A DNA stretch of 63,725 nt, counting the filler, from Reclinomonas americana ATCC 50394 (Eukaryota): NCBI GenBank assembly GCA_048213135.1. It is 17 parts of 17 records of this genome, joined end to end, with 100 filler letters (N's around TTAATTAATTAA, not from the genome) between each part and the next. Parts side by side here need not be neighbours in the genome. Positions count along the whole stretch, not along the records: positions 22,292 to 27,062 come from AFZH01017110.1; positions 27,163 to 34,077 come from AFZH01017111.1; positions 34,178 to 39,421 come from AFZH01017113.1; positions 39,522 to 40,578 come from AFZH01017114.1; positions 40,679 to 42,613 come from AFZH01017115.1; positions 42,714 to 44,412 come from AFZH01017116.1; positions 44,513 to 46,354 come from AFZH01017117.1; positions 46,455 to 47,927 come from AFZH01017118.1; 9 more parts are not named here. The stretch is one strand, 5' to 3'. The position numbers were made by a program, and so were the translations under genes. Numbering within the stretch: position 1 is the first letter of the stretch; each line of letters opens with the position of its first letter. The notes beneath the pieces are model-generated. The model was not told the origin of the DNA, searched no databases, and saw nothing but the letters and a program-made list of their open reading frames with translations. Of the stretch, positions 22,450 through 52,287 are shown in pieces.

Positions 22450-22602
22450 TCAGTAGCTTCCGGCCGTCGTGGTCGTCGAGTCAGGCGCAGTGATGGTGGT
22501 GGTGACACCATTGGCGGTCGTGTACGTGCCGCCCGTGCTCGCAGCGGCGCCTGCGTCAGAGACGGCGGCGCTGATTCCAAAAAGGGCGTCGAGGGCTTCC
22601 AT
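22450..22602 (-). CDS. Microprotein P1 (50 aa) MEALDALFGISAAVSDAGAAASTGGTYTTANGVTTTITAPDSTTTTAGSY
   Basis: GC-rich coding-like island after a pyrimidine tract and TAG|ACATT-ATG. Clear paralog of P2, with many synonymous third-position differences. Confidence 0.75.
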   Translation of the reverse strand: MEALDALFGISAAVSDAGAAASTGGTYTTANGVTTTITAPDSTTTTAGSY

Positions 22603-23759
22603 AATGTCTATAGAGAGGGAGGGAGGGTGAGGGAGATGAAACAAGAGAATGAATGAAAGGAGAAGGGAGGGGGGAAGAGAGAGGAAGGAGGCAGGGGGGA
22701 GAGAGTGAAGAGAGAGAGAGAGAGGGAGAGGAACGGGGGAGGGAGATGATAAAGAGAATGAAGGTGTACATATGGGAGAGACAGAGAAGGAGGCAGGGGG
22801 AGAGAGAGAAGGAGAGAGTGTGTGAGAGAGAGAATGGCATATGAAAGGAGACGGGAAGGGGAAGAGAGAGGAAGGAGGCAGGGGGAGAGAGTGAAGAAAG
22901 AGAGACCGCTGCGTGTGAGAGAGCGCAAAGTATGGGCACAAAAGATGCGCATACGCACACACGCAATGTGGCATACGAAGCGCGTGTGTGAATGCGAGAG
23001 AATGTGTATGTATGTGCGAGAGAGAGGGGGAGTGCGAGAGTGCGAATGAGTGTGAGAAGTATTGATCATAATAAGCATGCAGAGCGTGCGTGTGTTGAGA
23101 GAGAGAAAGAATGCATCTGTGCGTGTGCGGGAGAGGGAGAGGGAGAGAGTGAGACACACCTTGCGCGCTACAAAAAAGTGAGTGATTGTCGGACGGGACC
23201 GATACAGCGTGCGAAGGCGGGGGTGCTGTGGGAGGACTGCAAAGCCCTGAGTCACGTGAGTCTTGGTGTTGTACCATGTTGGTCTCCTGCTCCTGAATTG
23301 CAAAGCTTGGTTCGTGGCCACTGCAGATGCTTCGCGATATCAGATCCGGCCGGATCTAAGCCCTTTGCTTGCCCCGGCTTTGCTTGTCTGGCTTGTGGCC
23401 TCCACAGCTTCGTTGCTTGCCTCACAGGTCCAATGCCCGCTATGGCCGTTTACCGACCATTATATCCTTTGCTGAGCGCATAGCTGTAAGTGCAACTGCA
23501 AGACGGCGCTGGGTCACACTTTTAAGGTACTCCTGAAACTCGGCGATTGCTGGGCGACTGCTGGCAAGGAGGTGAGACAGATCGAAGGCGCACGCAGCAT
23601 TCCCTATCAATATCAAAGGCCAGCTTGCGCTCCACCGGCCCATGCCTGGGGGCGACAGAAGACAAGAAAGAGGAGAAAAGAAGATGAAGCGAAGAGGAGA
23701 AAAAGGGAACAGAACGAGAAGACTGCAGTGGTCATCAAGACACTTTGTTGGTGAATGAA

Positions 23760-24290
23760 TTGCTGTTGTAGAGGAAACGAGATGACAAAAGAAGAAAAGA
23801 GGCGAGATGAGATGAGAGGATGGAACAGAACACCGCAGCGCAGATCAACACACAAGTTGCCTTGCGAATTCCAATAGTAGGAGGAGAGAAGAGAGAAAGA
23901 CAGGAGAGGAGGAAACGAGATGACAAAAGAGGCGAGAAGAGATGAGAAGAGAAGAGAGGACGGAACAGAAGGAAGAGCCACCACCGCGCAAATCAACACG
24001 CAGTTGCCTTGCGAACTCAAATAAACGAGAGAAGAGAAAAGGGAAGAGAAGAGAGAAAGACAGGAGAGGAGGAAACGAGATGACAAAGAAGAAAGAGATG
24101 AGAAGAGAAGAGAGAGACGGAACAGCCACCAGCGCAGATCACCACACAAGTTGCCTTGCGAATTCGAATAAACGAGAGAAGAGAAAAGGGAAGAGAAGAC
24201 AGGAGAGGCGAGAAGAGATGAGAAGAGATGAGAGGATGGAACAGAACGCCAGAGCGCATATCAACACACAAGTTGCCTTGCGAATTCATA
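23760..24290. repeat. Tandem repeat, 4 copies of a ~120-150 bp unit
   Basis: Core gcagatcaacacacaagttgccttgcgaattc recurs near 23840, 23990, 24135 and 24258, separated by GA-rich linkers. Confidence 0.85.
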
Positions 24291-24345
24291 TTGTTGACGT
24301 GCCACGAAACACTCTCTCTTCTCTCTCTCTCACACATCCTCCCTC

Positions 24346-24501
24346 TCAGTAGCTTCCCGCCGCAGGCACATCCGGCACCGTGGTGACCGTGGTGACGCCA
24401 CTGGCGGTGGTGTAGGTGCCGCCCGTGCTCGCGGCGGCGTTGGCGTCAGAGACAGCGGCGCAGTCGGCGCCTCCGCTGAAAAAGTTGACGAGGAATTCCA
24501 T
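24346..24501 (-). CDS. Microprotein P2 (51 aa) MEFLVNFFSGGADCAAVSDANAAASTGGTYTTASGVTTVTTVPDVPAAGSY
   Basis: CAG|ACACT-ATG. Shares AAVSDA.AAASTGGTYTTA.GVTT and the terminal AGSY* with P1. Confidence 0.75.
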   Translation of the reverse strand: MEFLVNFFSGGADCAAVSDANAAASTGGTYTTASGVTTVTTVPDVPAAGSY

Positions 24502-25392
24502 AGTGTCTGTGGAGAGTGAGAGAGAGAGAGGGTGGGAGAGAGAAGAGAGGGGGAAGAGTGGGAGAGAGAGAGAGAGAGTGAGAGAGAGAAGAGAGGGTAT
24601 GAGAGAGTGAGAGAGACAGAGAGTGAGAAGAGAGAGGGGAAGAGAGGCGGAGGAGAGCAAGAGAGAGAGAGCGAGAAGAGAGAGAGAACGAAGAGAAGGG
24701 AGTGTGAGTGAGTGAGAGAAGAGTGTGAAAGAGAGTGAGTGACAGAGAGAGCGTGTGCGGGTGTGAGAGAGAGTGAGTGAGAGAGTGTGTGTGTGAGAGA
24801 GAAAAAGTGAGTGAGAGAGTGAGAGAGTGTGTGTGTGGGAGAGAGAGAGTGAGTGTGTGTAAGAAGAAGGAACTGGACAGACTATATTGATGAGCGCCAA
24901 CATGCGCGCGCGCGACACACACGCACACACAGGTGGGAACACACATACACGTGCAGCATTAACCACAACACGCACCTTGTGTTTGCGTGCGAGTGAGCGT
25001 GTATGTGCGTGAGACAAGATTCAGAGATGTGTTCGTCCCCCACTCGACGTCGACGGCCTCTCCTCGTGTATTCTCGCTTGCCCCTTGTGCAAGGTTGTGA
25101 GTTTGCTTTGTTTGTTTCAAGGTCGGTGGCAAGCACGAAAGCAAGAGTGGGAGTGCGAAGTTGTTTCGCCGCAAAGAAAAGTCGTCGACAGTCGCTGTTT
25201 GTTCGAGAATGCAGACCCGCACTCACTGCACTGGCAAGAGACGCCACCACTGCCTATCACGATCCACGCAGCGTGGCAAATCGCAAAAGACACTCAAGAG
25301 ACGCGCGCGCATTTCACACACACACGCAATCACAAAATGCCTCTTTTCCCGTTTCTCCACTCCTCCTCACTGCGAGCTCCTCATGCCTGTGA

Positions 25393-49987: not shown

Positions 49988-51211
49988 CTGCAATGGGGGA
50001 AGACGATAAGTCCATGCATAGAAGAGAAAGAAGTGACAACTAGCAAGGGTACAAGACAAATGCGGATAGACAAAACGAGAAAAACACGAGCGGCAGGTGG
50101 AGAACAAGAGATGCAGAGTAGGCGGAGCACGAAAGACGAGGAGAGAAGAGAGAGAAGAGAGGGAGAGGGAGAGGAACATGCAATGGAACTGTTTCCTTCC
50201 TTCCCAGAGAACTGAGATGCAGAGAAGCCAGAGCACACGAGCACGAAAGATTGAAAGGCAGTGACAGACGAAAGCATGGTATGAGGAGAGCAGTGTGAGA
50301 GAGAGAGGAACAGACAGTGGAGCTCTGTCCTTCCTTCCCAGAGAACTGAGATGCAGAGTAGCCGGAACACAAGAGCAAGAGAAGGCACGGGACGGCATCG
50401 AGAGAGTAACATTCAATGGAGCACTTTCTCTCCCGCTCTCTCTTTCCCTCCTTCCCTCCTCCCATTGCTTCCCCATCCCTTACCATTCTTCGATGCGTGT
50501 CAACGACAGCAGCGAAAAACGCAGATTTAATAGAATGAAAGACAAGCGACACGAATAGGGGAGAAAGGAACACCCTCCTTTCCATCTCTCTCTTCTCTCT
50601 TTTCCTCTCCCTCTCCCCTTCCTTCAATCCATCCCTCTCCTTCTCCTTTCCCCCTTCGATGCTGGTCACCGACAACGGCAAAAGAATGCAGGAACAGCAG
50701 GAACAAAGAGGCGACACAAGTAGGAAGAAGGAACACGCAGCGGAGCTCGTTCCTTCCCTCTCTCTCTCTCACACACACATTCTCTCTCTCCACTCTGCCC
50801 CTTTCCTCTGTCCCCCTTTGATGTGTGCCACGAACAGCAGCGAAAGGACGCTGACACAGGTAAAGAAACAGGAGCTACACAATAGCTATAGGAGAGAAAG
50901 GAACACCCTCCTTTCCATCTCTCTCTCTCTCTTTCTATCAACCCTTCCCCTTTCCCCCTTCGACGTGTGCCACCGACAACAGCAAATGGGCGCTGAACAC
51001 AGCGGAAAGACAGGGGAGAGACACAAAGCAGGGAAAAGAATACACAATGGAGCTCGTTCCTGCCTTCCATCTCTCTCCCTCCCTCTCCCTCTTTCCCTCT
51101 CACCCTTCCCCNNNNNNNNNNNNNNNNNNNNNNNNNNNNNNNNNNNNNNNNNNNNTTAATTAATTAANNNNNNNNNNNNNNNNNNNNNNNNNNNNNNNNN
51201 NNNNNNNNNNN

Positions 51212-51253
<42 letters not shown>

Positions 51254-51625
51254 ATGAGAGAGCACGTGAAGCAAAGGACATTCGACGTGAGCCACGACAC
51301 GGCAGCAGGCACAAACATCGACGTGGAGTCCAAGATGAGAGGAGAGAAACGCAGCTAGAGCACTGTGCCGCGTATGTGATCCCCTGCCAAGAGAGCGCAT
51401 AAGCCAGGCGTGCGTCACAGAAAAGAGAGAAAGAGAAACACTGACATCATGGCCAATGCAATATTGACACACGAAAACAACAAGAGCGGCATTGAAGCAC
51501 GACACACACTCCTCACGGGTGTTCTCCAACGGCTGATCACATACGTATACGAATGCAGTCAGTGGAGTGCGAGAAGAAATTCATTCGCCACACAAAAGCG
51601 CCGCGCAGCAGCAGGAACGCAATCA

Positions 51626-51799
51626 TCACAATCCAAACTGCTCAAACTCTCCCTGACCGCCAGATCCCGGCGGAAGCAGAGTGTGCGCGGCCTTGCTGCC
51701 CTTTCCGTCTTCCTCGCTGCAGTGTCCGTGCTGGAGTCCGACAGTGCCCTCGTCTCCCACCACAGTGGCCACGCCGAGTCCGTTATAGTTGAAGTCCAT
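51626..51799 (-). CDS. Microprotein P14 (57 aa) MDFNYNGLGVATVVGDEGTVGLQHGHCSEEDGKGSKAAHTLLPPGSGGQGEFEQFGL
   Basis: CT tract, CGCAG|GAGCAAGC-ATG; GVATVVGDEG motif. Confidence 0.62.
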   Translation of the reverse strand: MDFNYNGLGVATVVGDEGTVGLQHGHCSEEDGKGSKAAHTLLPPGSGGQGEFEQFGL

Positions 51800-52122
51800 G
51801 CTTGCTCCTGCGAGACAGCAACACATCAGAGACACAGAAGAAGAAGGAGAAGAGAGAGAGAGAGAGAGAGAGAGACAGGAGACGCACTGTTCACGCTCTT
51901 GAATGCGAAGTGTTGCGAGATCAGTCGATCATGACAGAGACTGAACCGAACACGCGAACATTCCTGCTCTCCTCTCTCCCTCCTCTGCCCAACACACACA
52001 CACACACCTGCCTATTACCCACTCACACACGCTCACACTTACACTTACACTCCATCGCGCATCTGTCTGACTCTTTTGTGCAACAACAACATTTTTCCCC
52101 CGTTCATTCACTCTCTCTCTCA

Positions 52123-52287
52123 TCATTTACATGGCATCTCCACCAACACCAACAACTCCTCATTGCCTCCGTCGTGGTTGTGGTCACCCATCGGCACCAG
52201 CACTTCCAGGTTGGAATTGGCGGGCACAATGATTTCAGCGGTGCATTGGTCGGAGATGATGGCGCTGTCAAAGTTCAGGCCTTCCAT
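52123..52287 (-). CDS. Microprotein P15 (54 aa) MEGLNFDSAIISDQCTAEIIVPANSNLEVLVPMGDHNHDGGNEELLVLVEMPCK
   Basis: GCC-ATG-G context; SAIISD motif. Confidence 0.55.
   Translation of the reverse strand: MEGLNFDSAIISDQCTAEIIVPANSNLEVLVPMGDHNHDGGNEELLVLVEMPCK

Follow-up and report, generated by a model that had tools for sequence, protein, structure and literature searches.

Fifteen small open reading frames (ORFs) of 43 to 57 amino acids, all on the minus strand, form a non-random class with coding-type constraints in a 63,725-nucleotide stretch of DNA (filler included) from Reclinomonas americana ATCC 50394 (GenBank assembly GCA_048213135.1). This whole stretch, referred to below as the window, is a composite of 17 pieces with N44-TTAATTAATTAA-N44 linkers between them and not a continuous sequence. 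The 15 ORFs are spread over five of these pieces. Tandem repeats run on across the gaps, and thus the common orientation of the ORFs is probably real. A sequence-only reading of the window had described the set as a single family of microproteins with a hydrophobic-[S/G/T]-D motif and hypervariable tails, and all 15 ORFs were located as it described. Taken together, frame-specific avoidance of Lys and Arg (K/R), codon usage, start context, and conservation between paralogues indicate that the ORFs are probably real coding sequences, forming the coherent class, liable to be missed by annotation, which that reading had proposed. We give about even odds (a probability of roughly 0.5) that they are genuine small-protein genes restricted to this lineage, which lie clustered in one orientation and have multiplied by local tandem duplication.

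RESULTS

A shared N-terminal motif and coding signals in the 15 ORFs

Eleven of the ORFs start with M-D or M-E, one with MN, and one with MG. The remaining two (34971 and 36097; apart from P1 to P3, ORFs are named here by their first coordinate) open with GTG-GA(C/T), which accounts for the two "(V)-D" starts listed previously. Near the N terminus, 14 of the 15 have an aliphatic run that terminates in [S/G/T]-D and mostly continues with x-[A/G]-[A/G], in agreement with the sequence-only reading; 42266, which reads ...VVTG instead, is the exception. The motif was strongly enriched over chance. When M-started ORFs of 35 to 90 codons with the motif no more than 30 residues from the Met were counted on the minus strand of 22292-52400, 12 were observed, compared with 1.39 and 1.05 expected from order-1 and order-2 Markov simulations of local 1-kb stretches, respectively. 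None of the 200 simulations at either order reached 12, and no motif-bearing M-ORF was found on the plus strand of the same interval.

Three further properties, on which the sequence-only reading had not drawn, set the ORFs apart even more sharply: composition, start context, and codon usage. No K or R occurred in 8 of the 15 members, as against 1 of 215 decoy ORFs of 40 to 60 amino acids, and at most two occurred in 14 of the 15 (17/215 decoys). A net charge of -4 or lower was likewise found in 14 members and in only 12 of the 215 decoys. The computed pI was 4.05 to 4.5 in 13 members, 4.05 being the floor of the calculator, and 5.2 to 5.9 in the other two. The K/R avoidance depended on the frame: of the 757 residues read in the ORF frame, 15 (2.0%) were K or R, whereas their share was 15 to 24% in four other frames; the wobble-sharing antisense frame was also low (4.4%) but contained 24 stops. 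No signal-peptide features were seen by inspection, without a predictor, in the acidic, K/R-poor N termini of the 15.

The starts of the ORFs often resembled the downstream side of a splice acceptor. This context, defined as a YAG within 22 nt upstream and a pyrimidine content of 65% or more in the 40 nt ahead of that YAG, was present at 9 of the 15 members. For other ATGs, the counts were 11 of 379 on the minus strand and 14 of 409 on the plus strand. A filter that combined length (40 to 60 amino acids), no more than two K+R, and start context retained nine members and, besides these, only two low-complexity plus-strand ORFs.

Codon usage was scored with a table built from the recognizable exons of the window. 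The 14 scored members fell between the 78th and 100th percentiles of 129 decoy ORFs, 10 of them at or above the 93rd; the value was 1.00 for 36570 and 41335 and 0.99 for 42266. The ORF frame was the best of six in 8 of the 14, and GC content at third codon positions (GC3) was 0.64 to 0.83 in 12 of the 14.

Paralogous pairs and tandem modules

The clearest paralogues were P1 (22450..22602), a 50-amino-acid ORF of the form ME..AAVSD..Thr-rich..AGSY without K or R, and P2 (24346..24501), of 51 amino acids. Their start codons lie 5 nt past the YAG, with 88% and 93% pyrimidine upstream, respectively. Similarity between them begins at the AG that lies 5 nt ahead of the ATG and ends with the stop codon; beyond these limits only low-complexity CT tracts align. 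The two proteins were 74% identical over 39 amino acids (E = 1e-16 without composition adjustment). Among 48 aligned codons, 12 differed synonymously and 15 nonsynonymously, which gave a ratio of nonsynonymous to synonymous substitution rates (dN/dS) of 0.42 and confirmed the synonymous divergence noted earlier. The two indels, of 9 and 6 nt, were in frame. P1 and P2 therefore have the features by which a microprotein gene is recognized, that is, fewer than 100 codons, a start and stop that coincide with the limits of conservation, and in-frame indels.

A second group, termed B, comprises four ORFs that form a duplicated two-unit module, each with an ATG-type (M-type) copy followed by a GTG-type (V-type) copy. 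The first module consists of 36570..36704 (44 amino acids, MDMNGIAIVIGDE.., K+R = 0; start 5 nt past the YAG, 88% pyrimidine) and 36097..36252 (51 codons), and the second consists of 35331..35486 (51 amino acids, MNGIVTVIGDS..) and 34971..35108 (45 codons). Aligned with each other, the two modules remain collinear for about 700 columns. Neither V-type copy has a genomic ATG; 36097..36252 opens with TGGAC and 34971..35108 with TGGAT, both directly after CACAG, and no in-frame upstream ATG was found within the open frame of 36097..36252. Despite this, 34971 and 36097 were 47% identical over 45 amino acids (E = 1e-10 unadjusted and 4e-6 adjusted), and the proportion of synonymous differences (pS) was 0.57, compared with a proportion of nonsynonymous differences (pN) of 0.27, over 43 codons. 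For the remaining B pairs, pN/pS was about 0.8 to 0.9.

Other links were weaker. A hidden Markov model (HMM) of the B core gave 51626 a score of 10.3 bits, whereas the best decoy reached 4.4 bits, a result that weakly joins this ORF to the B group. P3 (25393..25566; 57 amino acids, MDNYN..AVVSD; GC3, 0.83; start 17 nt past the YAG, 85% pyrimidine) was weakly linked to P1, P2, and 51626 (E = 0.003 to 0.04), and direct protein comparisons with P3 gave nothing significant. ORFs 34611 and 41335 shared 9 of 15 residues (E = 0.004). In a leave-one-out profile test of 12 members, from which 38124, 38949, and 40042 were omitted, five beat all decoys, four were borderline, and three failed; the score of 41335 was weak (4.8 bits). 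Judged from these alignments, common descent is established for subgroups only, with at least two true paralogue groups. The earlier view of the tails as unrelated and hypervariable accordingly held between subgroups and failed within them, the tails of P1/P2 and of 34971/36097 being homologous.

With a motif HMM, no further members scored above the decoy level elsewhere in the window. Two candidate additions, 21952-22125 and 17205-17300, were dropped because both are largely intron. Descent from the P-loop exon of the STAND NTPases was also considered and set aside, as the look-alike h-h-h-h-G-D-x-G-G was not among the top 16 B-core HMM matches (down to 2.5 bits). Likeness to GDSL, Rossmann, Walker-B, and receiver-domain N termini was seen by eye only, and these ideas were dropped.

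The remaining ORFs

ORF 34611..34775 (54 amino acids, MDTT..VTVSD..) lies at the end of the B array, with a CAG 21 nt upstream. ORF 38124..38261 (45 amino acids, METNAV..ATCTD, K+R = 0) is the C-terminal part of a 143-amino-acid ORF and has no acceptor-like context; thus, it may belong to a larger exon. The next two, 38949..39080 (43 amino acids, MDPSYK..VVATD) and 40042..40203 (53 amino acids, MGSTNS..VSAGD, K+R = 0), start 6 nt and 9 nt past the YAG, with 68% and 63% pyrimidine upstream, respectively. They are followed by 41335..41481 (48 amino acids, MDSGDG..TPVSD) and by 42266..42433 (55 amino acids, MEYNQ.., K+R = 0), which lacks the motif D and starts 4 nt past the YAG (78% pyrimidine). 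The last two are 51626..51799 (57 amino acids, MDFNYNGLGVATVVGDEG..; 8 nt, 78%) and 52123..52287 (54 amino acids, MEGLNFDSAIISD..). The latter is the weakest member of the set; it failed the leave-one-out test, has no nearby YAG, and had the lowest codon-usage percentile (0.78).

Predicted gene structure and splicing

Nearly every ORF start lies 4 to 21 nt past a pyrimidine tract followed by CAG. Candidate donors are found further upstream, and with two of them minus-strand introns were predicted from the sequence: a 78-nt intron (GTGAGT...CAG) at 35496..35573, which ends 9 nt before the ATG of 35331-35486, and an 80-nt intron (GTGCGT...CAG) at 51808..51887, which ends 8 nt before the ATG of 51626-51799. 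Canonical GT-AG introns are present in the source eukaryote, as seen in its SelO gene, whose plus-strand exons match positions 194-245, 260-288, and 399-464 of the Pfam SelO profile. In addition, all three units of a STAND-TPR gene array in the window have a GTGAGT...CAG intron, and the ATG at which translation probably starts follows the acceptor by about 35 nt. Spliced-leader trans-splicing was also considered as the source of the acceptors and was dropped, because the upstream donors and the 5' intron of the STAND-TPR genes point to cis-splicing.

Upstream of three B units, also on the minus strand, lies a conserved element of about 70 to 85 nt whose end coincides with the donor position. 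Its copies lie at 36347..36433 upstream of the first V-type copy (nhmmer E = 2.9e-22), at 35171..35239 upstream of the second V-type copy (E = 3.7e-13), and at 35575..35649 upstream of the second M-type copy (E = 9.4e-10), where it ends at the GTGAGT donor. No other copy was found in the window with nhmmer, and the element had no Rfam match. It could be a 5' exon, a promoter, or a small RNA. In the V-type copies, the exon opens with TGGA right after CACAG, and the homologous donor position is preceded by A, so that splicing would rebuild ATG-GA. Because the donors proposed for this event (GTTAWA) are weak, the split start codon is treated here as hypothetical.

In the gene model that we propose, a short 5' exon would come first, then an intron rich in pyrimidines with its YAG acceptor 4 to 21 nt ahead of the start codon, and finally one coding exon of 43 to 57 codons that ends at a true stop. 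For the two V-type copies, the acceptor would fall inside the ATG, with exon 1 ending in A and exon 2 opening with TG. The products would be acidic peptides nearly without Lys or Arg, probably disordered and cytosolic, and would share the N-terminal segment M-[D/E]...aliphatic(3-6)-[S/G]-D-x-[A/G]-[A/G].

Database searches and structure modeling

When 14 of the 15 small ORFs (all except 40042-40203) were compared with Pfam, only noise at E values of 0.058 or higher was obtained. For P1, no candidates were returned among proteins of near length, and none of 668 candidates among longer proteins had an E value of 10 or lower. A B-family profile run against 1.84 billion representatives yielded no credible relative; its sole match (E = 7e-4), a 934-amino-acid internally repetitive protein matched in eight stretches, was judged to be spurious. 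Metagenome scans gave 149 and 599 pattern matches, of which none was confirmed by tblastn, and the Atlas gave nothing for P1 or for a 406-amino-acid ORF of the window (48795-50015). This ORF, used as a control, had no protein-library match either. The libraries thus seem to lack this lineage, and database blanks carry little weight either way. The limited part of the literature that was searched contained nothing relevant, and absence of the family from print is not claimed. In an AlphaFold2 model of 36570-36704, built with five sequences, the mean predicted local distance difference test (pLDDT) score was 48 and no secondary structure was formed; the first 10 residues had a pLDDT of 72.

A Pfam-type domain scan covered 244 ORFs, namely, 233 filtered ORFs of at least 55 amino acids (30-58 kb) and 11 more (22-28 kb). 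Only PF12708 and two subthreshold low-complexity matches were returned from these ORFs, among which short exons may hide domains.

Other features of the window

The STAND-TPR array occupies 8161-22190 on the minus strand and is NLR-like, with three tandem units of 4.4 to 4.5 kb that are about 81 to 83% identical. Each unit contains a STAND-type P-loop exon and a TPR_10/TPR_12 ORF of 630 to 640 amino acids. The P-loop exon gave weak nSTAND3/AAA_16 matches at 20197-20793, and two contig breaks fall at the same point of the repeat unit. The plus-strand SelO (protein adenylyltransferase) gene at 59276-61166 is interrupted by three or more GT-AG introns. Fourteen unmatched profile positions fit a 39-nt micro-exon at 59595-59633, between introns of about 71 nt and about 63 nt, and the third intron (about 470 nt, CT-rich) is built of a degenerate repeat of about 13 nt.

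A pectate-lyase-like gene is located at 26200-30178 (minus strand), with PF12708 in its first exon at 29714-30178. Past CT-rich repeats of about 1.4 kb (28500-29700), it seems to run on through many short exons, which were recognized only by eye and not by Pfam. The block at 43799-46351 is duplicated at 48042-50600 with about 81 to 83% identity and carries the ORF of up to 406 amino acids, which belongs to no known family and lacks protein-library matches. One copy of the block gave a weak, subthreshold H-type lectin match, and the copy at 44529-45922 appears to be frame-shifted.

Repeats in low-complexity (CT-, GA-, or CA-rich) DNA, tandem or dispersed and 70 to 85% identical, were found at 23771-24290 (between P1 and P2), 28537-29558, 37272-37835, 53073-53425, and 56814-57547. 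A 192-amino-acid open frame of acidic KEHSDD-like repeats lies at 52807-53385 (minus strand), and its sole Pfam match, below threshold, was to the acidic region of CDC45. At 3582-4256 (minus strand), a 224-amino-acid ORF begins 3 nt past a pyrimidine tract and AG; a glycosyltransferase-like EDD motif region was seen in it by eye, and it had no significant Pfam match. Rfam and tRNA scans of the window gave no match.

DISCUSSION

Weighing the evidence for small-protein genes

Several observations weigh against reading the ORFs as a set of small-protein genes. The dN/dS estimates were drawn from only 43 to 48 codons, and codon usage favored another frame in 6 of the 14 scored members. Between 44 and 47% of all ATGs in this DNA open ORFs of at least 40 codons, so that ORF length by itself is uninformative here. 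In the B array, the noncoding upstream element is more conserved than the ORFs themselves, and the two copies without an ATG depend on weak proposed donors. No homologue of the small ORFs was found anywhere that was searched, which is of little weight given the result for the control ORF. As for the unity of the set, the leave-one-out failures were 34611 (-0.7 bits), 42266, and 52123 (-3.9 bits), and the HMMs of the subgroups (A, B, and "other") did not detect one another above the decoy level, except for the match of the B-core HMM to 51626. Scores of at least 18 bits were obtained in 17 of 210 directed comparisons within the set and in 6 of 3,315 comparisons with decoys, a contrast that is partly circular and post hoc because the set was picked by eye. 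The single conserved family of 15 that had been proposed was therefore not demonstrated. Since homology is clear only inside subgroups, the 15 are treated here as a coherent class and not as one proven family.

The ORFs might instead be first coding exons of larger genes, or variable first exons on shared downstream exons, in which case most tails would be intron read-through. This is unlikely, although introns are dense in this genome and exons can be very short, as is the 39-nt one of SelO. Between subgroups, only the first 15 or so codons can be aligned, and a GTGAGT string overlaps the stop codon of 36097. However, conservation between P1 and P2 reaches the stop and ends there, no GT is present in the last conserved codons, and the tail alone contains 10 synonymous and 8 nonsynonymous codon differences (a hand count from the alignment). 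The K/R avoidance and codon usage were computed across whole ORFs, and no Pfam-recognizable exon lies downstream. In addition, the spacing of about 320 to 770 nt in the B array leaves little room for more exons. A still less probable alternative is that the ORFs are untranslated, being conserved DNA or RNA elements or undecayed young duplicates in which an RNY-type periodic composition mimics protein. The RNY share of codons in the ORFs is indeed 0.29 to 0.58, and few K or R occur in the wobble-sharing antisense frame, but the minus-strand ORF frame alone is both open and K/R-poor. The stronger conservation of the B upstream element, the two copies without an ATG, and the lack of a fold in the AlphaFold2 model would fit such elements, and we counted the blank Rfam result on the same side. 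Against them stand the start and stop of P1 and P2, which mark the limits of similarity, the in-frame indels, the enriched gene-start context, and a synonymous excess in two independent pairs (P1/P2 and 34971/36097).

Two functional alternatives, which take up ideas of the sequence-only reading, fared worse. Peptide precursors, either like those of ribosomally synthesized and posttranslationally modified peptides (RiPPs) or hormone-like, would have a motif conserved near the N terminus, for recognition or for cleavage behind the Asp, and would release a peptide of variable sequence. The ORFs are short and multicopy; their motif keeps much the same distance from the N terminus, the rest varies, and the P4-P1 pattern aliphatic-x-small-Asp resembles the sites of Asp-directed proteases. 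The proposal nevertheless appears improbable, as no domain of a tailoring or processing enzyme was detected in the 244 ORFs scanned at 22-58 kb, within the reach that short exons allow, and the ORFs lack dibasic sites, repeated cores, a conserved follower, and, as judged by eye, a signal peptide. Even harder to credit is an amyloid-type or RHIM-like signaling core tied functionally to the neighboring STAND-TPR genes. P1 to P3 do lie directly upstream of the three tandem genes, and cores such as GIAIVIG are beta-prone, in line with the locally higher pLDDT at the start of 36570. In the STAND-TPR units, however, the motif HMM reached at best 8.7 bits, below the best decoy (9.6 bits), and the motif-like ORF at the 5' end of these genes is largely intron, as it spans GTGAGT...CAG. 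The core is also only 6 to 7 residues long and has neither a G/N/Q pattern nor a Q at the RHIM position.

Comparison with known systems

Small-protein genes of the kind favored here resemble known, taxonomically restricted microprotein gene families in having fewer than 100 codons and no homologues, in being clustered, tandemly expanded, and below annotation thresholds, and in the constraint between paralogues. They differ in forming a uniformly acidic, nearly K/R-free class with a shared N-terminal motif and a predicted intron before or inside the ATG. The MSDIN-type RiPP precursors of fungi are multicopy genes of tens of codons with a conserved Met and acidic or polar N terminus followed by a variable part. 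The ORFs are similar to these in copy number, length, conserved N-terminal stretch, and variable remainder, but no invariant Pro surrounds a short core, no follower is conserved, and the variable part is 30 to 40 residues long. No prolyl oligopeptidase was seen in the window. More generally, in RiPP precursors of the MSDIN or dikaritin kind, a short core stands between a leader and a follower that are both conserved, or a signal peptide is followed by several cores with dibasic sites between them. Neither layout was recognized in the ORFs, whose alignment contains no follower or repeats and whose N termini are acidic.

A small ubiquitin-like modifier (SUMO)-interacting motif (SIM) consists of four positions, three of them V, I, or L, with acidic residues or Ser after them. 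Judged by eye, 52123 and the four ORFs of the B modules are alike in this respect, with an I/V run that includes A or T and is followed by D-E, D-S, or S-D. A SIM core with an acidic flank can thus be seen in roughly a third of the ORFs, as a likeness in sequence only. The Ala-rich cores of P1 to P3 do not fit, and a SIM is a degenerate linear motif and not a family. The core tetrad of the RHIM is (I/V)-Q-(I/V/L)-G. The B cores read I-V-I-G, I-A-I-G, and T-V-I-G, and a Q at the second position was found in none of the members. NLR-associated amyloid motifs (HET-s, PP, sigma, and BASS) are about 20 to 25 residues long and recur at the N terminus of the NLR itself. The ORFs share with them short beta-prone motifs next to STAND-TPR genes, whereas the NLR-like genes of the window do not carry the motif.

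Fungal lipopeptide pheromone precursors of the a-factor type are acidic, multicopy proteins of about 40 to 60 amino acids without a signal peptide, often with an M-D start. The ORFs are alike in size, acidity, copy number, frequent M-D start, and, by inspection, the lack of a signal peptide. The idea was dropped, since a C-a-a-X box was present at none of the 15 C termini; no receptor gene was seen in the window.

Possible roles and implications

If the ORFs are small-protein genes, a tentative role can be suggested for their two parts. The aliphatic strand with its acidic residue may serve either as a processing site or, through beta-strand addition, as a short docking motif, and the acidic tail, free of K and R, may be a variable effector part resistant to ubiquitin and trypsin; this is possible but clearly less probable than the existence of the genes as such. 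More speculatively, and with a good deal of doubt, the set might belong to an undescribed class of cytosolic, K/R-free acidic microproteins with a shared N-terminal docking or Asp-processing segment (aliphatic-[S/G]-D-x-[A/G]-[A/G]) and fast-evolving tails that provide specificity, encoded by a co-oriented array with A|TG-spliced starts in some copies. Without K or R, such peptides would escape both lysine ubiquitylation and trypsin-based proteome surveys, which could explain why the class has not been seen so far.

If the ORFs are not translated, the locus is a warning that ORF length means nothing in intron-dense, low-complexity genomes. If they are translated, they would make up a compact microprotein family that is defined by composition and a short N-terminal motif and not by a fold. 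Such a family would have been overlooked by gene callers, owing to length cutoffs and the intron at the ATG, and by standard proteomics, owing to the lack of tryptic sites. It would also provide a concrete case of splicing-reconstituted start codons in a young tandem array.

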